From assembly GCF_044324875.1 (NCBI RefSeq), contig NZ_CP172186.1: a stretch of DNA of 64,000 bases; one strand, given 5' to 3'. The position numbers and the translations under genes were made by a program. This document shows, in pieces, positions 20,570-31,678 of this stretch (positions are counted from its first letter, which is position 1; the number at the start of each line of letters is the position of its first letter). Below the pieces are notes generated by a model. That model was not told the DNA's origin and made no database searches. It saw only the letters and a program-made list of their open reading frames with translations. Source of the stretch: Escherichia coli. Its GTDB lineage: Bacteria > Pseudomonadota > Gammaproteobacteria > Enterobacterales > Enterobacteriaceae.

Positions 20570-21147
20570 TCTTTTTTCTCCGTTTTCAGGGGATACAGGA
20601 TGTCTGGTACGCGGTGACTGTGTGATTCCGGCAGCGGAGCCAGCGGGAAACACTGGAAGCGGCGCGTGATCCATCCCTGACGGTTACGGTTATCGATGAG
20701 CGTGAAGGTACGACGCTTCACGCGTTTCAGTGTCGGGGTGTCGCTTTCCATGACCGGCCAGTCTCCGGCTGTGAGTGCCGGTGTGCCGGGGACATCCGGC
20801 CACAGCCAGGTGTTGTCAGACATCAGCGCCGTGAGAGGCGAGGGCAGAAGCCAGTGAATGACATGCTGTATATCAAAAGGCGGTCGCTCCGGCACGTTAA
20901 CCTGCCAGGTGGCCGTTGTTATCAGCGTGCCTGTCTCTCCGGGCAGGGCCAGGCGAATACCACTCATCTCCCCGTCAGCCCGTCTGTCACTGGCAAAAAT
21001 GACCCGGGGATTGGGGGACGGTCGCAGTGTGAAGCAGGCGGACGGCAGGGTGAAGCTGAAACTGTCACCGTCCACGCGCAGCGTTTTCAGGAAGACCTGT
21101 CCCCGTGCAGGACGCCGGCAGCGGGGAGTGATGTGTATGCTGTACAT
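20527..21147 (-). CDS. traV: TraV
   Basis: 206 aa, stop/start coupled to traU; assigned by synteny. Confidence 0.5.
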   Translation of the reverse strand: MYSIHITPRCRRPARGQVFLKTLRVDGDSFSFTLPSACFTLRPSPNPRVIFASDRRADGEMSGIRLALPGETGTLITTATWQVNVPERPPFDIQHVIHWLLPSPLTALMSDNTWLWPDVPGTPALTAGDWPVMESDTPTLKRVKRRTFTLIDNRNRQGWITRRFQCFPLAPLPESHSHRVPDILYPLKTEKKECKDNQQPHCLHSW

Positions 21148-24100
21148 CAGAGGTGATATCCCTGCTTACGGATGAGTTCCGCAGCCAGATCATGGATGAC
21201 GTTTTCACTGTCATGTGTACGGGCGCGGTGTTCTATCAGTGAGGTGGCTGAACCACGGGGAAAGTTTTCTGCCAGGATCTGGCGTGCCCGCAGTGACCCG
21301 AGCTCCTGCGTCAGCGCACGTCTCAGGGCGCTGTCTTTGGGTGAGGAATTCAGAGCCCACAGCTCCAGTGGACCGAGAGTGAATTTCAGGATCCGGGCCA
21401 GCGTACCGTTTTTTACACGGAACACAGCCAGTACCGGGACACCGCTGCCATCCGGTGCAGCCCCTTCCGGCATTTTCAGAAAGCGCCGCAGGGTGACTTC
21501 AGGGACACCAAAATTATCCCGCAGAAACGGAATTTCGTCAGGGCGGTAACGCAGCAACCAGAGGGTGTTGGCGGATTTGAGAACTGCCGGTGGATAGTCC
21601 TGCAGTAGCTGGGTGCTCAGCACTGTGCGTATCCCGAACTTACGCTGCTCCAGCTCCTGGGTGTCCAGGGCTTCCCAGATGAAGTTGATCCCTTTTGCAT
21701 TGTGCAGTTCGTCATAGACTTTGGTCTTGACCTCCTGATCAAGCTGTTCAATGCGGCGGAAAATCACCTCATGGTAGCGTGGGTCGAGATTTTTCCGTAT
21801 TTCCTCCTGATACTGCGGCAGGACAAAATCCCCGCCGGCGATTTGTCCTGCCAGCAGGTACATGATGCCGGTGCGCAGACGCCCGGCAGGTGTCTTGTCA
21901 CCGGCCACATTGTTCAGATCAACGGCCACAACGCGGGTGTCGGGGCTGAGCATAAACCGGGTACAGCCGGACATCATCGGGTAGTCACTGTGTCCCTGAT
22001 CGAGGGCACGGCGGATGTAGTCCAGTAACAATTCTGCTGAGTTATCGCGCTGAACTGTGCCGAACACATCCCGGATGGATGGCTGTCCCAGCAGGGCGGA
22101 CATTTCAGCCAGCAGGGGCATGGCCTGGTAGTGTGCCCGCTGGGCTGCGGGGATATTGCCAGCCATATGCAGCATGTCCCTGATTTCAAACCAGGTGGCA
22201 GCATTCCACCATCCAGAGTCATGTTGTTCTGCGATGCCACTCTCTTCCAGGGCGAGATCCACAAGGGGCTCTGTTCCTGCACGGTACAGTCTGGGGTTGT
22301 TTTCGCCATACTCCCTGAAGGCCAGATCCACCAGGTTGCTTATGATTTGCCGGGTGTCACCGGGATTACAGGGCTGACCGGTGCCGGTATCCACGCACAG
22401 TGCGCAGAGTACAGATACCATGAAGTTCTTTTCCGGGGTGGCGGGTTTTTTAGCACCGTACATCACATCAAACAGGTTACGGGTGTGTTCCGGATCATTG
22501 CTCAGAATGATCCCCACGGCTTCGTCCTTTCTCTGCTCCGGCAGGCTGTCACGGATAAGCTGTACCAGTCCCTGTGCACTGAATCCCTTGTCGATATAGG
22601 CAATGAAAGGCAGGTTCTTCTGGGCTGAGGCTATCTGGATCTCCGACAGTGCGTTGATGAGTACCGATTTGCCCAGACCGGGTGCGCCGGGCGTCAGTTC
22701 CGTGTGCTTGTTCTGTTGTGACGATGCCAGTGCGACCTCCCATGCAGAGCCGTCCTCGGTGTGCATCATCAGATTTCCCTGTCCCCGCCAGACAGAGCCT
22801 GCCCTGTTCAGGGGAAACAGGGAAAGGGCGTGTGAAAGGGGCGGGTAAAGGGGGATCGGGCCGGAGCTGTGGGAGGCTGCCAGAACCGTGTTCACCCAGG
22901 CACGTCTCGGATCACCGAAGGTGGTGGTGGTGCCGCATACCCCCCAGCCTTCCAGCGCAGATTTCAGGAGAGCCTGGTTACGGGTACAGACTTCCCGGCT
23001 GTTTCCCCATGTGGTGGCAACAATGGTCATGATACAGACCGGATCATGTTTGTTGATGTCATTCAGCATCATCACCGAGTCATACATGGGCCGGAGAGGG
23101 GAAATAAAGCTGCTGTAGGTTAGCAGGGTTTTCTTGACTCCAAGCGCCTTCATGCCGCCGGGCATCAGATCCATCCGGATACGCCAGGGGATTGCGCGGG
23201 GCACATCCCTGACCAGCTGGTTGAATGTCCGCAGATTCTGGGGTGGCAGGGTAATGGCGACCATACCGTGCCAGAGGTCACCGGCCTTTATCAGGCTGCC
23301 GTGTGTTTCAGGCTGTGTGGTGAATAACTGCAGATTCAGCGACGGTGCGTGGAATACAGAGGTATCCTCGCCCTGTCGCCAGCCGGCAGGACGGGCATCT
23401 TCAGGCAGATGAGGCTGCCATACTGCAGGTGTGCTGTTGCGCTCCAGTTGACGGCGGATTTCCCGTCCCACTTCATGAATATCCATCAGGCGAACCAGCA
23501 GACCATCAGAATCATGTGTCAGGGCCTGCTCCAGCGTGTCCAGAAAGGCGTCATGCCGTATTTTGAGTGCGGAAAGTGTCCAGCGCCATGGATCCTGCGC
23601 AAATCGGGCTGGCGGAGCGTGTTCAGCGAGTTTCCTGATACGGGTCTGGTGGTCCTTGCGATCGGTCCGGCTCAGCAGTTCTTCAGAGCTCCAGACGGTC
23701 AGCCAGCAGCGTTCCCGGACAAGCCAGGGGGTGAGGGTGGTGACTTTTTCATCCAGAACGTCCTGAAGCAGGATCCCCGTACGTGCGATGGATTTTCGCT
23801 GGGGTAAGAGCATGGCTTCGATTTCATCCCTTCCACGCTCCGGATCGCGTTCGAAAACAAAACTGATTTTGTGACCGGTGTTTTTATAGGCAGTGTTCAT
23901 TCGCTCTGCCAGCGCTGTAATCAGTGATTCCAGTGTGCCGGGGGCTGTCAGGTCCGGGTTTTCATCCATTTCTTTCAGGGCACCGCTGATTTCAAAGACG
24001 GAAAGGTAATACCCCTGTTTTGTGGTGGCAATGTAGGGGGCTTTCAGCCAGGGGCGGCGTTCGCGGTCCTGTTGGTCCAGACCGATGACGGTGTGCAGAT

Positions 24101-24203
24101 CACAGTAATCGGGGAAGAATGCGGAAACGGAATACCGTGACAGGGTACTGATACAGTCTTCAATGGCAAAAATAATGCGGTTGATATTCATGGCATGGAG
24201 CAC
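21147..24203 (-). CDS. traU: TraU ATPase (DotO/IcmB-like, VirB4-class)
   Basis: 1018 aa, Walker A GAPGLGKS; size matches IncI1 TraU. Confidence 0.85.
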   Translation of the reverse strand: MLHAMNINRIIFAIEDCISTLSRYSVSAFFPDYCDLHTVIGLDQQDRERRPWLKAPYIATTKQGYYLSVFEISGALKEMDENPDLTAPGTLESLITALAERMNTAYKNTGHKISFVFERDPERGRDEIEAMLLPQRKSIARTGILLQDVLDEKVTTLTPWLVRERCWLTVWSSEELLSRTDRKDHQTRIRKLAEHAPPARFAQDPWRWTLSALKIRHDAFLDTLEQALTHDSDGLLVRLMDIHEVGREIRRQLERNSTPAVWQPHLPEDARPAGWRQGEDTSVFHAPSLNLQLFTTQPETHGSLIKAGDLWHGMVAITLPPQNLRTFNQLVRDVPRAIPWRIRMDLMPGGMKALGVKKTLLTYSSFISPLRPMYDSVMMLNDINKHDPVCIMTIVATTWGNSREVCTRNQALLKSALEGWGVCGTTTTFGDPRRAWVNTVLAASHSSGPIPLYPPLSHALSLFPLNRAGSVWRGQGNLMMHTEDGSAWEVALASSQQNKHTELTPGAPGLGKSVLINALSEIQIASAQKNLPFIAYIDKGFSAQGLVQLIRDSLPEQRKDEAVGIILSNDPEHTRNLFDVMYGAKKPATPEKNFMVSVLCALCVDTGTGQPCNPGDTRQIISNLVDLAFREYGENNPRLYRAGTEPLVDLALEESGIAEQHDSGWWNAATWFEIRDMLHMAGNIPAAQRAHYQAMPLLAEMSALLGQPSIRDVFGTVQRDNSAELLLDYIRRALDQGHSDYPMMSGCTRFMLSPDTRVVAVDLNNVAGDKTPAGRLRTGIMYLLAGQIAGGDFVLPQYQEEIRKNLDPRYHEVIFRRIEQLDQEVKTKVYDELHNAKGINFIWEALDTQELEQRKFGIRTVLSTQLLQDYPPAVLKSANTLWLLRYRPDEIPFLRDNFGVPEVTLRRFLKMPEGAAPDGSGVPVLAVFRVKNGTLARILKFTLGPLELWALNSSPKDSALRRALTQELGSLRARQILAENFPRGSATSLIEHRARTHDSENVIHDLAAELIRKQGYHL

Positions 24204-24489: not shown

Positions 24490-24526
24490 ATGAAGGGGTT
24501 CTACGCCGGAACCGCCGAAATTTCCG

Positions 24527-25120
<594 letters not shown>

Positions 25121-25148
25121 TAAACTCCCTGAGAAAGAGGTAAACAGA

Positions 25149-25475
25149 ATGACTAAAAATACTCGTTTTTCCCCCGAAGTCCGTCAGAGGGCGATTCGTA
25201 TGGTTCTGGAAAGTCAGGGCGAATATGACTCACAGTGGGCGGCAATTTGTTCCATTGCCCCAAAGATTGGCTGTACACCGGAGACTCTGCGTGTCTGGGT
25301 ACGCCAGCATGAGCGGGATACCGGAGGCGGTGATGGCGGGCTCACCACCGCTGAACGTCAGCGTCTGAAAGAGCTGGAACGTGAAAATCGTGAACTGCGC
25401 CGCAGTAACGATATCCTTCGCCAGGCTTCCGCTTATTTTGCGAAGGCGGAGTTCGACCGCCTCTGGAAAAAGTGA
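25149..25475 (+). CDS. IS3-family transposase OrfA (HTH)
   Basis: 108 aa [19 protein letters not shown]..., leucine-zipper region; overlaps orfB start. Confidence 0.9.
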
Positions 25476-26362
25476 TGCCACTGCTGGATAAGCTGCGTAA
25501 GCTGTACGGGGTCGGACCGGTATGCAGTGAACTACATATTGCCCCGTCAACGTATTACCACTGTCAGCAACAGCGACATCATCCTGATAAACGCAGTGCC
25601 CGTGCGCAGCGCGATGACTGGCTGAAGAAAGAGATACTGCGCGTATACGATGGGAATCATCAGGTATACGGTGTGCGTAAAGTCTGGCGTCAGTTGTTAC
25701 GGGAAGGAATCAGGGTAGCCAGATGTACAGTGGCGCGCCTCATGGCGGTTATGGGACTTGCCGGTGTTCTCCGGGGTAAAAAGGTCCGCACTACCGTCAG
25801 CCGGAAAGCCGTTGCCGCAGGCGACCGCGTAAACCGTCAGTTTGTGGCAGAACGTCCTGACCAGTTGTGGGTGGCTGATTTTACTTACGTCAGCACATGG
25901 CAGGGGGTCGTCTATGTGGCGTTCATCATTGATGTGTTTGCCGGATACATCGTGGGGTGGCGGGTCTCATCGTCTATGGAAACGACATTCGTGCTGGATG
26001 CTCTGGAGCAGGCGTTATGGGCCCGTCGACCGTCCGGCACAGTCCATCACAGTGATAAAGGTTCTCAGTATGTATCGCTGGCCTACACACAGCGGCTTAA
26101 GGAAGCCGGATTACTGGCATCAACAGGAAGTACTGGTGACTCGTATGACAACGCGATGGCGGAGAGCATCAATGGCCTTTACAAAGCGGAGGTAATACAC
26201 CGTAAGAGCTGGAAAAACCGGACAGAAGTGGAGCTGGCCACACTCACGTGGGTGGACTGGTATAACAATCGACGATTGCTGGAAAGGCTGGGCCATATCC
26301 CACCGGCAGAAGCAGAAAAAGCTTATTATGCTTCCATCGGAAACGATGATCTGGCAGCCTGA
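25472..26362 (+). CDS. IS3-family transposase OrfB (DDE)
   Basis: 296 aa, rve domain; made as OrfAB fusion by -1 frameshift in this family. Confidence 0.9.
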
Positions 26363-26405
26363 GTTCACAGATAAAACACTCTCCAGGAAACCCGGGGCGG
26401 TTCAA

Positions 26406-28271
26406 AACGTCAGCCACATCACAAAATGGTAGCTGTTCATAGAATCGCGTCTCTTTTGCCTTATTACGATTGACAACGGGTTTATGCCAAGTCAGCTTCT
26501 GCGTTTCTCTATCGTATATCACATGCTTCAACTTTCCCTGTTTTAGCTCGCGGTTGAATGCTTTCCATTGTCGATGCAGTTCAGACTCCAACTTCTTTAG
26601 TTGTGTTTTGATCGGCTTGTGCAAAAATGGGATATTCATTTCAGCCAGCACCGTCGCCTTTTTTCCTTCTGGTACCAGTTCATCAGAAAGATGACGATGA
26701 CGGAGACTGTTATTGAGGTGGAATTCACCTGCCTGAAAGCGTTTTCTAATCTGTCGGTAGAGCCAGAACTCATAGCGCCCAGCATTCAGTCCAATGACTT
26801 CGCCACTCTCATCAAACTCTAGCAAATACGGGCGTAATCGTTTGGGTAATGTTCCCTTTGGGCATTCTGTTAGTGGTCGCTGCGAAAGCGTCTGCTTTTT
26901 ACTGAATACCACCTTAAGCCAGTTCATGGCTTTTACCCACGGACTATCGCTGACTACACTGTTGAGGTCGAGCGACAGAAATAATGGTCGAAGGTGACGC
27001 CGGATTAATCCGGTCATACCATCGACAGCTTGCCACTGTAATGCCAGTTTGCTGACGGGTTTTACGCTCATACGCTGAGCGGTGGTTTGCAGTGTCTCCC
27101 GTGGCATAATCTTCCACGCTCTACGGCGCACTTCGCCAAAGGTGGTAAAGTCTGAGACACTATCATCAACATAAAGAGACAGCAGTCGTCCGATCTTAGG
27201 CGTTTCACGCCGGTGTTTTTCTTGAACGTCAACCAGAAGCTGCTTAGCTACACGGCGACTCTCATCCTCGATCTTTTTCAAATGGAAAAACATGGCTTCC
27301 ACCAAGTTATCGCTGAACTGACGATAACGAACCCATGCATAACACAGCAGATAAAGACGCGCCTGCTCGGGTTTCAGTTGACGCAGATCGTAAACGGTAT
27401 AGAAATTTGCCAGACTCGCGTAGTACAACAGGTTTTGCTGAGAAATATTCAGTGTAGGTAAAATATTGCAGGCTTTATGGTGCAGTGCTTCCAAAATGGT
27501 TCGTTTTTCCCTTTCTTGGGTCATCTGTCGCCATCCGAAGTCTCGGGCATCTTGCCTGAGAATGGCAAGGCGGGAAAGAGTTTCATCGCGTTCAATCAGC
27601 TTGTTCAAATGAGCAATAGTCGCGTCATCGAGTTGTTCCGTTAAAATATGTCCTAATCTTTGTCTTTCATTAGAAAGGACTTTGCTGACTAGCTCTTGAA
27701 GTGTGGTATAGCCGGGTCTGATAATTTTGTTCTCGTTGAGCCAGATAATTAGCTCTGTGGCAACAAATCCGGGAGTGATATCGCGGTGAACAATATGGAC
27801 AGCTTGTTGTTCAACCAATGAAGACAATGCTGAGGACCATGGACGATAATTATACAATTTGAATATTTTTTCTCGCTGAGCATAGCGTTCATATTTAGAG
27901 GGCGATTGAAGTGGAATTGACTCTCCAGGAAAATAACGACTCAGGATAAAGTTGCAGTCGTCCAAGACATCATGCCAATTGAAATGAAAAAACAGACTTT
28001 TAGCTTTAAAGTAAGCAATCTGCAGAATGCAACAAAGCTGCGCATGAAGCCCTTTTCGACTGTTGACTAACGCTAACTCCGATTCATCCAGAACCAAAAA
28101 CTCTAATTGTTGTGCATCATCGAAATCAGGGAGGCCATAGAGAGCTTCTTGTTCAGCATTACTTAATACCGCTAGTCGTTCACTTTTACCAGCGGCTTTA
28201 CCACCACTTACCATCTTGCCCCCCGAAATTAATGTCCGTAAGAGGATCGTTAAGCGGACAGTAATAACCAC
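26406..28271 (-). pseudogene. tnpA: Tn3-family transposase tnpA, N-terminal ~620 codons (interrupted, internal deletion)
   Basis: Tn3-type TnpA N-terminal region; ORF-track frame runs into IS629; combined fragments shorter than a ~1000-aa TnpA. Confidence 0.8.
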
Positions 28272-28362
28272 TTTTATAATCCGCCTATTTATTAGGCTGA
28301 CGTTGTCTCATATAACTGGTACGATATCAATCTCTTTTATCCCCCCTTAAACGTACATTAAT
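28272..28362. promoter_or_regulatory. Probable res site / divergent tnpA-tnpR promoter region
   Basis: Intergenic between divergently oriented tnpA and tnpR, the usual res position in Tn3-family elements; inferred, subsites not mapped. Confidence 0.4.
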
Positions 28363-28938
28363 ATGACTGGAATCAAGATTGGCTATGCTCGTTGCTCCAC
28401 AGACCAACAAGACCTAACTGCCCAGATAGATGCGCTGATAAATCTAGGCATTTCCACTGACAGGATCTATACAGACAAAGGACTGACTGGTTCAAACCGA
28501 CAGAGGCCGGGCCTAGAACAGGCGCTTGCAGCGGTTCGAGAGGGAGATACGCTAGTTGTTCCAAAACTAGATCGTTTAGCCCGTTCAGTACCTGATGCAA
28601 GAGGTATTGCTGATATCCTACAAGCTCGAGGAGCGAAACTCGCTCTAGGGGACAGTATCTATGATCCAACAGACCCGATGGGGAAAATGTTCTTCAATAT
28701 TCTTGCTACTTTTGCAGAGTTTGAAGGAGACCTTATTCGACTACGAACTAAAGAGGGGATGGCTGTTGCCCGTTCAAAGGGAAAATTGAAAGGAAAACAG
28801 CCTAAATTATCTGAAAAACAACAAAAAGAACTATGCCGTATGCGTGATACTGGCCAGTACTCTATCAGCGATCTAGCGGAACTATTTACCGTCTCGCGTG
28901 CAACGGTTTATCGAACACTTTCACGAGGACAAAAATGA
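28363..28938 (+). CDS. tnpR: Serine recombinase (resolvase) TnpR
   Basis: 191 aa, GYARCSTDQQ catalytic serine motif, C-terminal HTH. Confidence 0.9.
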   Translation: MTGIKIGYARCSTDQQDLTAQIDALINLGISTDRIYTDKGLTGSNRQRPGLEQALAAVREGDTLVVPKLDRLARSVPDARGIADILQARGAKLALGDSIYDPTDPMGKMFFNILATFAEFEGDLIRLRTKEGMAVARSKGKLKGKQPKLSEKQQKELCRMRDTGQYSISDLAELFTVSRATVYRTLSRGQK

Positions 28939-29149
28939 CCGATTTAACTACACAGCAACATCTAGTAAAAATTGTCCATGATTATGCCTGCCCTCAAAAG
29001 GGTCATGGACAGTCCATCAAAGGTTCAAATGGATTACATCTGCATTCAATACCCAGATTACTTCCGCTTTGCTAAATGGATAGAACGGTTGGCGTAGGGT
29101 ATTGTTGATGGTGTAATTAAAGTTCCTAAAGATCATTAAAATATCAGAT

Positions 29150-29188
29150 CGGAAATTTAGGCGGTTCCGGCGTAGAACCCAGAACCCC
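29150..29188. repeat. Internal third copy of the Tn3-family terminal IR (variant terminus)
   Basis: CGGAAATTTAGGCGGTTCCGGCGTAGAACCCAGAACCCC, same orientation as the right-end IR at 31234-31267. Confidence 0.8.
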
Positions 29189-29197
29189 TTATCCGAA

Positions 29198-30061
29198 TTA
29201 TTGTTCAGTTAACTTCATTTCGACAAGTAAAGGTAAATGATCTGAGACAGATGCATATGGCTTACTTTCAGGGGTCGCTCTATCTGACGGTTTAGGAATA
29301 TATACATCTTTAATGTCCCATTTTTGAGCATTTGATGTAAGTATATAATCAATTTTCCTGTCTGGATTCCATGATGGTGCCGTGTACTTCAATTCCTTAT
29401 CAGTGTCATTGAACCATGCTGTTAAATCCAAGTACTCTGTTGATTGAGGTGGTAAATTAAGATCACCCACTATAATTGGAAGTGCATTTTTAAACTGCCA
29501 AGAAGAGAATTTTGTTTGAAGAGTTCTTACTTGCTCTGCTCGTAATGGCTGCGTAGTGAAGTCCAAATGAGTAGTTACTAACATAACAGGCGCAGGATAA
29601 TTAGGGACATCAACTTCTACAGCACAGGCCGCTCTTTGCTCCGCACCTTTGATGTTAGGTAGTTCCATCCTTTTACTCAATTTCAAATCATACTTAGACA
29701 GTACTGCTGTACCATATTCCCCACCATCATGATCTATAGCCTTGCAGAAGTAATAATTCATTCCCAACTTATTAGCTATATACTCTGCTTGATTGACTGG
29801 GTTAGAACCCTCTTTACTAAAGTTCTTACCAGAACGCCTAGTCATGTTATCAACTTCTTGCAGTCCAATAATATCAACATTCATTTTACGAATTGCTTCT
29901 ACAATGGCATCAGTACTCCCCATTCTAGAGGCCATTATGTTATATGACCCAACACGAATACTATCGGTATCTGCTGGACCATCCATGAGGCGATCAGAAG
30001 CTAAAGTTGAAGAGGAAAGAACTATAAACCCTATAACCGCAGCAATGCTTGTTAATTTCAT
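29198..30061 (-). CDS. Secreted endonuclease/exonuclease/phosphatase (EEP, DNase I-like fold) family protein
   Basis: 287 aa, N-terminal signal peptide, SYNIM...GLQEV and C-terminal SDHLP motifs; AT-rich; cargo inside transposon. Confidence 0.7.
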   Translation of the reverse strand: MKLTSIAAVIGFIVLSSSTLASDRLMDGPADTDSIRVGSYNIMASRMGSTDAIVEAIRKMNVDIIGLQEVDNMTRRSGKNFSKEGSNPVNQAEYIANKLGMNYYFCKAIDHDGGEYGTAVLSKYDLKLSKRMELPNIKGAEQRAACAVEVDVPNYPAPVMLVTTHLDFTTQPLRAEQVRTLQTKFSSWQFKNALPIIVGDLNLPPQSTEYLDLTAWFNDTDKELKYTAPSWNPDRKIDYILTSNAQKWDIKDVYIPKPSDRATPESKPYASVSDHLPLLVEMKLTEQ

Positions 30062-30062
30062 T

Positions 30063-30390
30063 TGGATTTGCCCCTATATTTCCAGATACCTGTTATCACT
30101 TAACCCATTACTGGCTTGCTGCCGTAGATATTCCCGTGGCGAGCGATAACCCAGTGCACTATGCGGATGCCATTCGTTATAATGCTCGAACGCCTCTGCA
30201 AGGTTCTTTGCTGCCGTTAACCCGTCTGGTTTGGGCATGACACTGATGTAGTCACGCTTTATCGTTTTCACGAAGCTCTCTGCTATGCCGTTACTCTCCG
30301 GACTCCGCACCGCCGTGCTCTTCGGTTCAAGCCCCAACATCCGGGCAAACTGCCGTGTTTCATTAGCCCGGTAGCATGAACCATTATCCG
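30063..30390 (-). mobile_element. IS2 remnant (3' end of orfB plus terminal IR)
   Basis: IS2 end TGGATTTGCCCCTATATTTCCAGA; translation matches IS2 OrfB C-terminus; junction with IS1 approximate. Confidence 0.8.
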
Positions 30391-30937
30391 TCATCCATAT
30401 CACCACGTCAAAGGGTGACAGCAGGCTCATAAGACGCCCCAGCGTCGCCATCGTGCGTTCACAGAATACGTGCGCAACAACCGTCTTCCGGAGCCTGTCA
30501 TACGCGTAAAACAGCCAGCGCTGGCGCGATTTAGCCCCGACATAGCCCCACTGTTCGTCCATTTCCGCGCAGACGATGACGTCACTGCCCGGCTGTATGC
30601 GCGAGGTTACCGACTGCGGCCTGAGTTTTTTAAGTGACGTAAAATCGTGTTGAGGCCAACGCCCATAATGCGGGCAGTTGCCCGGCATCCAACGCCATTC
30701 ATGGCCATATCAATGATTTTCTGGTGCGTACCGGGTTGAGAAGCGGTGTAAGTGAACTGCAGTTGCCATGTTTTACGGCAGTGAGAGCAGAGATAGCGCT
30801 GATGTCCGGCGGTGCTTTTGCCGTTACGCACCACCCCGTCAGTAGCTGAACAGGAGGGACAGCTGATAGAAACAGAAGCCACTGGAGCACCTCAAAAACA
30901 CCATCATACACTAAATCAGTAAGTTGGCAGCATCACC
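30390..30937 (-). mobile_element. IS1 remnant (IR, insA, 5' two-thirds of insB) fused to the IS2 remnant
   Basis: IS1 terminus GGTGATGCTGCCAACTTA at 30920-30937; InsB sequence ends at WMTD then continues as IS2 OrfB. Confidence 0.8.
30607..30882 (-). CDS. insA: IS1 InsA
   Basis: 91 aa [30 protein letters not shown]... Confidence 0.85.
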
Positions 30938-31267
30938 CGCGAATTATTAAATAAATACCATGGGCTCTCTCGTATTAGCCAAAAATTAAGGCAAAAAGGC
31001 TCGAGACCTTAGTAATAGAACAAGAGCTTGAAGATACCGATGTCAATTGGTTTGAGACGTGCCTTAAAGCAAAAGAAAAAAGTTTGGCAGCAGCTTCCCC
31101 CAAAATCAGAGTTAGAAAACAAAGATGATTCGTGACCTTCTATATTAAGGTCACTCGTTATCAATGATATTAGAGTGCATAAGCAAATAGAAAGAACATA
31201 CCAGTCAATTACTTATACTTTCTTTGACTCAATGTCGGAAATTTCGGCGGTTCCGGCGTAGAACCCC

Positions 31268-31678
31268 ATGAAGTTGTTTTCTCCGTTTCCTTAATGAAAA
31301 TTCAGCCAGAGGCGCAGCAGGATGATTATGTAGTGCACTTAATGCCCTGTTGAACTGAAGTATTCCGGCAATATCCATCCATGAGAGATATTTATCGACG
31401 CTCACTGTGACGGTGATGCAGTCATGGGTACGGGATTTTTCATGAATTTCTGCAGCCAGAAAGAGCAGCCAGCCGCCGTTAAATGCCGGGTGGCGGAGAA
31501 TGAACCGGGCAATCTCTTTTTCAACTCCATCAGGCGGAATATCGTCCGTCAGTGTCCGGATAATAAAGTGCCGGAATGCATCAGCGGTGAACTGATATGC
31601 GGCAGAGAGGGTATCCATTTTTGTTCCTCTGTAAGTTGAGAGGGCCGGCAGAACGTCACCGGCACCGGTGTGTGTCAC
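31268..31678 (-). pseudogene. 5' part of the tra-region gene disrupted by the Tn3-family insertion
   Basis: ORF-track ORF 31229-31678 takes its last 13 codons from the transposon IR; native frame continues at 24489-24367. Confidence 0.55.

Follow-up and report, generated by a model that had tools for sequence, protein, structure and literature searches.

The rewiring of neighbouring gene expression by insertion sequences (IS) is textbook biology. The mechanism known for IS2 combines an outward -35 element in the IRR with a -10 element that starts 1 bp past the tip of the IS, across a mandatory 17-bp spacer (PMC3299598). IS2 hybrid promoters are described for ampC, neoR, and acrEF (PMC9330008). 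At ampC (Jaurin and Normark 1983, summarised in PMC9330008), the IRR -35 is paired with a resident -10 located 17 bp away, and both lie upstream of ampC's own RBS. Pjunc, the promoter of IS2 and IS911 minicircles, is composed of the IRR -35 and the IRL -10 of one element; it is made by the transposase and is transient (PMC3299598). Fusion promoters are also known for IS1, IS26, IS256, and other elements, where they activate silent or weak genes and are proven by phenotype (PMC9330008).

The locus described here is a fresh, lineage-specific instance of this known type of event. It lies in the window, which is the whole 64,000-nt (64-kb) stretch of Escherichia coli DNA that was analysed. There, an EEP-family gene on the minus strand directly follows a block of IS DNA (Table 1). 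We read the leader of this gene as a three-event mobile-element scar, and the gene, which is intact, as still expressed, mainly from a promoter-like site created where IS1 and IS2 were fused. Going by the sequence, the chances of this explanation as a whole are about even. Its structural part is close to certain.

Table 1. Features of the EEP gene, the IS block upstream of it, and the adjoining end of the transposon, in window coordinates
Feature	Position	Strand	Basis or remark
Third, internal IR-like copy, 2 mismatches	29151..29181	minus	Just 3' of the EEP stop, inner border of the EEP module
EEP-family gene, 287 aa, N-terminal signal peptide, intact	29198..30061	minus	ORF list and Pfam
Genuine EEP ATG start codon (reads CAT on the plus strand)	30059..30061	minus	Same ATG annotated in all IS2-free loci
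Sole native nucleotide remaining 5' of the EEP ATG (t)	30062	minus	Comparison with IS2-free loci
IS2 relic, unique part (IS2 nt 1331 back to 1009): orfB 3' end and 41-bp IRR	30063..30385	minus	BLAST, joint alignment
41-bp IS2 IRR	30063-30103	minus	
SD-like UAGGGG from the IS2 IRR, 9 nt before AUG	30071..30076	minus	Its UAG is the chimeric ORF stop
In-frame chimeric ORF, 204 aa: IS1 InsB' N-part and IS2 OrfB C-part	30074..30688	minus	ORF list, Pfam
Fusion promoter-like site TTGACG-17-GATAAT, predicted start near 30376	30383..30411	minus	Directed toward the EEP gene; consensus scan
IS1/IS2 crossover: 8-nt perfect microhomology TGACGGAT	30386..30393	minus	Three-way alignment of window, IS1, and IS2
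IS1 relic (nt 552 back to 1): IRL, intact insA, 5' part of insB'	30386..30937	minus	BLAST; Pfam InsA domains
insA, intact	30607-30882	minus	Within the IS1 relic
Weak promoter-like site CTGCCA-16-TATGAT in the IS1 IRL	30903..30930	minus	Place of IS1's own promoter; 7.7 bits, rank 107
Transposon tail 5' of IS1	30938..31236	minus	Starts with CGCGAATTA (30938-30946), one IS1 TSD copy
Right terminal inverted repeat of the transposon	31237..31267	minus	Exact match, 31 nt, to left IR 24495-24525

The right end of IS2, TGGATTTGCCCC, begins at 30063, and 1 base separates the IS2 tip from the EEP ATG. The native sequence at this place reads cat followed by tttttacacc, and the window reads cat, then t, then TGGATTTG. 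The exact place of the junction is uncertain by a single base, since position 30063 is T in the native sequence too. Comparison by BLAST with complete IS1 and IS2 copies from other loci identifies 30063-30937, i.e., the 875 bp located 5' of position 30062, as wholly IS DNA.

These results bear out much of a sequence-only reading of the same DNA. It had placed the IS2 end at 30063 and the EEP ATG at 30061 on the minus strand, and direct reading of the sequence gives these coordinates. It had described the sequence 5' of the start codon as IS, and 30063-30937 aligns to IS2 and IS1. The GGGG that it had noted about 10 nt before the ATG occupies minus-strand positions 30074-30071, with 9 nt separating it from the ATG. 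It had also proposed that the native promoter and ribosome-binding region were replaced, and the IS2-free loci do carry AAGGTG and an AT-rich leader before the same ATG. A true start further upstream, which it had named as grounds for refutation, is ruled out. The homologues are 283-287 aa long, their signal-peptide N-termini align, the IS2-free loci share the ATG, and a native SD stands 5-6 nt before it.

IS2-free copies of the gene are carried by a Vibrio tapetis plasmid (L001), a Providencia rettgeri plasmid (L002), and many E. coli plasmids (L003, L004, L020). All five of these loci read AACAAGGTGTAAAA-ATG, preceded by an AT-rich stretch of native leader that is 55-166 nt long. The native SD, AAGGTG, stands 5-6 nt before the EEP ATG. 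The leader also contains modest promoter-like sites, the best of which score 9.1 and 8.4 bits with a position weight matrix (PWM). The EEP leader has been struck by three different IS elements in separate lineages. Natural alleles of the gene carry four leaders (native, IS1 at about -160, IS66 at -55, and IS2 at -1) and are handy for expression comparison.

The sequence-only reading had presented the IS as a means of switching on the neighbouring gene, and this claim is not supported. Nothing indicates a switch-on. An SD and promoter-like sites are present in the copies without IS2, so the event is a replacement of signals, not the activation of a silent gene. The EEP locus is like the fusion promoters of IS1, IS26, IS256, and others in that the expression of a neighbour relies on IS-derived sequence. 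It differs from those phenotype-proven activations of silent or weak genes, as the EEP gene had apparently adequate native signals and its case is known here from sequence.

The upstream block is an IS1(1-552)::IS2(1001-1331) chimera. By BLAST, window positions 30937 to 30386 correspond to IS1 nt 1-552 (99.6% over 552 nt), and positions 30397 to 30063 correspond to IS2 nt 997-1331 (97.0% over 335 nt, with the full IS2 from L006 as reference). The IRR tip is identical to the tips in L006-L010, as expected of an IS2 right end. The complete chromosomal IS2 in L006 has atttc on both sides, which fixes the IS2 tip at the T of TGGA and confirms a 5-bp TSD. In the window, the last 323-331 bp of IS2 remain, and the IRL, orfA, and most of orfB are absent. 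The IS2 piece is a relic, not a mobile IS2.

The IS1 piece is also incomplete. It consists of nt 1-552 of the 768-bp element, with the IRL, insA, the frameshift site, and the 5' part of insB' present. One copy of the 9-bp TSD, CGCGAATTA, is kept, and the other copy has been deleted along with the IRR. A complete IS1 occupies the same site in L002, with CGCGAATTA on both sides, and the IS1-free L001 has CGCGAATTA once.

IS1 and IS2 meet at the perfect microhomology TGACGGAT. In each of the two transposase genes, this stretch codes for the Thr-Asp of the DDE motif (WMTD followed by GW in IS1, LTD followed by NGS in IS2). Because this joint lies at neither IS terminus, it points to a microhomology deletion, not to a product of transposition. 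The chimeric ORF across the joint contains a DDE_Tnp_IS1 domain at residues 37-109 and an rve_3 domain at residues 119-184 (Pfam). It ends with a UAG stop codon at 30076-30074, 12 nt before the EEP ATG. As a separate observation, an in-frame chimeric DDE protein is yielded by the same event as the fusion.

Three steps would account for this structure. In the first, IS1 would have inserted approximately 160-166 nt upstream of the EEP ATG. To judge by the loci compared, this insertion is old and shared, and the IS1-only state is widespread. In the second, a complete IS2 would have landed co-directionally and duplicated TCATT (30058-30062, tcatt), which the coding strand reads as AATGA. The EEP gene would have kept its start codon because the inferred AATGA duplication contains the ATG; the SD and promoter were lost. 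The ATG was thus probably kept thanks to the IS2 TSD, which is itself deduced, its IRL side being deleted. In the third step, a RecA-independent deletion between the two TGACGGAT repeats would have fused IS1 to IS2. Approximately 1.4 kb is missing in all. It comprises IS1 nt 553-768, IS2 nt 1-1000, and, between them, the native leader of ~160 nt that held the AAGGTG SD and the promoter-like sites. A search of 5,426 complete E. coli genomes and 72,556 plasmids gave no match to the predicted intermediate, AAGGTGTAAAAATGA joined to TAGACTGGCCCC (native leader, AATGA, and IS2 IRL), so the IS2 insertion and the deletion are reconstructed from the end-product by itself.

Among complete genomes and the plasmids of PLSDB, the junction occurs only in pLH50-c-A, an IncK2/Z plasmid from Swiss poultry. 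An exact-protein look-up identified nine further draft assemblies at NCBI with identical IRR-ATG, IS1::IS2, and IS1-IRL junctions. IS copies are a classic cause of mis-assembly, and the IS2/gene and IS1/IS2 joints might on that account be put down to mis-joined repeat reads. Such an artefact is next to inconceivable here, as all three junctions recur without change in a closed plasmid and in nine drafts assembled independently, and the joints lie in IS interiors at microhomology rather than at repeat edges.

The arrangement is thus present in at least 11 near-identical plasmid copies, in which the junction, the promoter-like site, and the ORF are unchanged. Their differences from the window are confined to a handful of scattered positions in the IS DNA and one poly-A indel. 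On this comparison, they are one recent, near-clonal plasmid lineage, and for that reason the conservation of the site across the 11 copies says nothing about selection. A search of metagenome contigs for the exact 33-nt junction gave 0 matches. Two-piece matches to the IS1::IS2 joint elsewhere (H62-H66) were rejected as unrelated IS1/IS2 adjacencies. One example is plasmid pTB222, which has IS1(634)::IS2(626) with a different IRR flank. No relevant account of this part of IncK2 plasmids was found in the literature.

For the expression of the gene, the sequence-only reading had invoked either read-through from IS2/IS1 or a hybrid promoter. The part that stands is that any EEP transcript must start within the IS block or further upstream. 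The classical IS2 geometry fails. The mandatory 17-bp spacer puts the -10 slot on ATGAAA (2/6), which coincides with the start codon (PMC3299598). This slot lacks the A at position 2 and the T at position 6, and the consensus scan called no site there. Because the slot sits on the EEP start codon, a transcript would start inside the ORF, approximately 13 nt after the ATG. The flank therefore offers no -10 that lies 17 bp from the IRR -35 and gives a start upstream of the RBS.

The comparison with ampC is instructive on this point. As at ampC, a co-directional IRR adjoins the gene and has replaced promoter DNA. At the EEP locus, in contrast, the tip is 1 nt from the ATG, too close for a -10, a transcription start, or the native RBS to fit in. 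A classical IS2 hybrid promoter driving the EEP gene is thus highly improbable, even though this orientation makes promoters at ampC, neoR, acrEF, and the minicircle junction (PMC9330008, PMC3299598). The canonical outward -35 can be excluded by geometry alone, which cautions against presuming that mechanism wherever an IS abuts a gene.

Promoter prediction on the minus strand, a check that had been suggested along with the hybrid-promoter idea, returned a strong-looking fusion site at 30411-30383, at the IS1/IS2 joint. As predicted by these scans, the only strong promoter-like site is at this internal joint, at a distance of 320 nt, not at the junction between IS2 and the gene. Its -35 comes from IS1 (nt 527-532), and its -10 is made up of GAT, shared by both elements, and AAT of IS2 (nt 1006-1011). 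The site is the best minus-strand match in the consensus scan (10/12), and the 64-kb window contains only 3 sites this good when both strands (128 kb) are counted. With a crude PWM it scores 12.2 bits and is rank 3 among 127,936 window positions. The same register scores 2.3 bits in intact IS1 and -3.2 bits in intact IS2. The site has the properties of a joint-made sigma-70 promoter, i.e., its halves come from different parents, they are spaced within 16-18 bp, and neither parent has the site.

The fusion site closely resembles lambda PR (TTGACG-17-GATAATggtt against TTGACT-17-GATAATggtt), with the same spacing, the same -10, and the same next four bases. This is a resemblance of sequence, not homology, and the spacer and upstream sequences differ. 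The site is also like Pjunc, where two harmless halves are joined by recombination with exactly 17-bp spacing. Pjunc unites parts of one element, whereas the halves of the fusion site derive from coding DNA inside two unrelated IS, would have been joined by microhomology deletion, and are permanently united. The locus would illustrate that microhomology deletion at a conserved catalytic motif can assemble a promoter out of internal coding sequence from two transposase genes that are unrelated to each other. Consensus matches are not proof of promoter activity, which counts against the expression reading.

As a control, every possible IS1-to-IS2 microhomology joint was built and scored. The observed joint is the best promoter-creating joint among the 233 with at least 6 nt of homology. 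It is also the best among the 15 with at least 8 nt, where the chance of this is 1 in 15 and thus too high to be compelling. Only 0.05% of random IS1/IS2 joints reach 12 bits. The rank of the joint suggests selection, with p ~0.002-0.07 depending on the null, and is not proof of it.

The stricter of these nulls (at least 8 nt of microhomology, p = 1/15) leaves room for a neutral scar, in which IS2 cut the EEP gene from its promoter, the gene is effectively silent, and the fusion site is a coincidence. IS scars are abundant on these plasmids, as seen from the three elements in the EEP leader and from the interrupted tnpA of the surrounding transposon, and a near-clonal, recent lineage is expected to have an intact ORF in the absence of selection. 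Against a silent gene stand a 10/12 sigma-70 match of optimal spacing with a lambda-PR-like core, a combination that is usually active, an IS2 end that gives a usable SD, and a path from the fusion site to the gene that has no terminator-like site. Read-through from IS1 and the tra genes, which are co-directional with the EEP gene, can also hardly be avoided altogether. The neutral scar is, on balance, rather doubtful.

Read-through may also be considered as the only source of the transcript. Upstream of the EEP gene and co-directional with it are traO to traT, a hypothetical gene, insA, and the chimeric ORF. A scan of the minus strand from 32883 down to 29100 found no terminator-like sites. 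With the promoter-like site in the IS1 IRL (30930-30903), this would allow the EEP gene to be the tail of IS1 IRL or tra transcripts, with nothing added by the fusion site. The IS1 promoter is a weak one that InsA represses, and IS1 is a classic example of an element with polar effects on the genes that follow it. Both properties argue against read-through as the whole explanation, as InsA is intact here and would repress the IS1 promoter. The IS1 site also scores 7.7 bits against 12.2 bits for the fusion site. Expression by read-through alone is unlikely.

If the EEP gene is expressed mainly from the fusion site, transcription would begin at TTGACG-17-GATAAT and produce a leader of approximately 315 nt. 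The weak IS1 promoter and tra read-through would add to it, and they can contribute because no terminator-like site intervenes. The leader is long and would be mostly untranslated, and it could be open to Rho-dependent termination. No special RNA structure was found in the predicted 315-nt leader (z = 0.36).

Translation would then proceed from the IRR-borne UAGGGG. The duplex of this motif with the 16S 3' end has an energy of -5.6 kcal/mol, as compared with -3.9 for the native AAGGUG, and its gap to the AUG is 9 nt versus 6. Initiation at the EEP start is predicted to be 0.88x native by an RBS-calculator-style model (duplex energy, aligned-spacing penalty, start codon, and local unfolding), and translation is not predicted to be limiting. 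Ribosomes ending at the UAG of the chimeric ORF may help, as termination at this overlapping codon could add translational coupling to the EEP gene. The net effect would be that expression is rewired and native regulation is lost, with no switch-on.

A more elaborate history would make the deletion a rescue. IS2 would first have silenced the EEP gene, and the deletion, at the shared catalytic Thr-Asp codons, would then have been selected because this joint, out of hundreds that could form, builds the lambda-PR-like promoter, with the EEP gene as the distal cistron of a chimeric transposase remnant. From the sequence features described above, this two-step scheme is tentative and somewhat less than probable.

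The EEP gene is a passenger of a Tn3-family transposon (24495-31267) on an IncK2/Z-type plasmid. The transposon sits in an IncI-type tra gene array, and its 5-bp TSD, atgaa, is found at 24490-24494 and 31268-31272. It carries a resolvase and a DUF4158 domain, the N-terminal domain of tnpA. The tnpA gene is broken by an IS3-family element, and the transposon is probably immobile on its own for this reason, to judge by the gene structure. GGGG-starting IRs, a 5-bp TSD, tnpA, and a serine resolvase place the element in the Tn3 family. Like other passenger transposons of this family, it has 31-bp GGGG-starting repeats, tnpA/tnpR, and a passenger between tnpR and the right end. It differs from the usual members in the third, internal IR-like copy, in the broken tnpA, and in its uncharacterised Vibrio-type EEP passenger.

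The EEP protein matches Pfam PF03372 (Exo_endo_phos) with 8.4e-17 and a score of 62.1 bits, where the cut-off is 24.5. Its identity with the copies in L001-L005 is 98-100%. Residues N41, E69, D200, N202, D274, and H275 are invariant in 22 homologues, and all are retained in the window. The AlphaFold model (pLDDT 90.7) has the four-layer alpha/beta sandwich of the EEP fold. Pfam score, conserved catalytic residues, and fold together assign the protein to the EEP superfamily.

A sequence search of the PDB with the EEP protein gave no match. A fold search with the model returned Nocturnin, TDP2, CNOT6L, and uncharacterised bacterial EEP proteins as the top PDB entries, with E ~1e-15 and 15-20% identity. 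No substrate can be assigned because the fold search returns the generic EEP fold only. The practical significance of the locus is currently small, the EEP protein having no known function. A single substitution, G75R, is private to the EEP allele of the window and is also present in the IS2-free L020. It was considered as a sign of decay and rejected, since the position varies across the family and the allele also occurs IS2-free in L020.

The EEP module is AT-rich, with 38% GC as compared with 52% in the window, and its relatives are in Vibrionaceae. Distant EEP homologues of 283-287 aa are found in Vibrio, Aliivibrio, Photobacterium, Aeromonas, and Pasteurella, and the signal-peptide N-terminus is aligned among them. 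The EEP protein is a Vibrio-type hydrolase with a signal peptide that is spreading on poultry E. coli plasmids.

The ~165-nt AT-rich leader of the EEP gene was struck independently by three IS families, in separate plasmid lineages. Relative to the gene, the insertion point is -160/-166 for IS1, -55 for an IS66-family element, and -1 for IS2, and after every one of these insertions the EEP ORF is intact. Two right-end flanks of IS2 from unrelated chromosomal sites, gcttgtctatttcatttc (1602-1619 of L006, a complete chromosomal IS2 locus) and cgcttagttaaatcatt (1501-1517 of L007, another IS2-bearing locus), resemble the flank at window 30047-30062, gcttgttaatttcatt. This likeness, of a kind that BLAST ranking itself favours, may reflect an IS2 target preference.

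Coordinates of the EEP leader insertions and associated features
Feature	Sequence	Position	Strand	Remarks
Leader insertion	L002, Providencia rettgeri plasmid	4329		
Leader insertion	L004, E. coli plasmid	4323		
Leader insertion	L003, E. coli plasmid	4218		
Leader insertion	L020, E. coli plasmid	about 990		
Leader insertion	window	30063		
Chimeric DDE ORF	window	30074-30688		joint 30386-30393
Tn3-family transposon	window	24495-31267		31-nt terminal repeats identical; 5-bp target duplication atgaa
Third, internal IR-like copy	window	29151-29181		directly after EEP gene
IS3-family element in tnpA	window	25472-26362	+	NCBIfam transpos_IS3, 309 bits
1018-aa ORF	window	21147-24203	-	directly outside transposon's left end

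The IS1/IS2 deletion joint upstream of the EEP gene reads in frame across both transposases. In IS1 (WMTD|GW) and IS2 (LTD|NGS) alike, it falls on the Thr-Asp that holds the second catalytic aspartate, generating a chimeric DDE ORF whose N-half derives from IS1 and whose C-half (rve_3) derives from IS2. Because the A6C frameshift site of IS1 is still present, an InsA-InsB'-OrfB' fusion protein is conceivable. The chicken E. coli plasmid pTB222 (L009, 3734-5071) carries IS1 nt 1-634 fused to IS2 nt 626-1331. This chimera is independent of the one in the window, and interior fusions of IS1 and IS2 thus recur.

The transposon carrying the EEP gene is probably no longer autonomous, since its tnpA is interrupted by the IS3-family element; the gene at 26244-28271 retains only the N-terminal 675 aa. 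The EEP module (29182-31267) looks like an add-on with a second right end as its border, because the internal IR-like copy adjoins the EEP gene. In the Vibrio tapetis plasmid (L001, 4172-4549), the transposon tail contains an additional IR-like sequence, ggggttctgcgccggaactcc, in the opposite orientation, and this sequence and the terminal IR enclose a MITE-like unit roughly 380 bp long. About 85 bp of this tail is missing from the E. coli and Providencia copies, apparently by deletion between short AATTA repeats.

The transposon lies between the 1018-aa ORF and the traT-side genes. This ORF had no match in Pfam, PADLOC, or NCBIfam; an identical protein is named "ATP-binding protein" in RefSeq. 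Judged by its place in the IncI-type tra array, it may be the TraU/DotO-like ATPase.

Besides the site at the IS1/IS2 fusion, only two promoter-like sites with a match of at least 10/12 occur in the window, at 24584-24613 (+) and 16532-16504 (-). One of these two, TTGAAA-18-TAAAAT, is located just inside the left IR of the transposon and reads inward, in antisense orientation relative to the tnpA 3' end.
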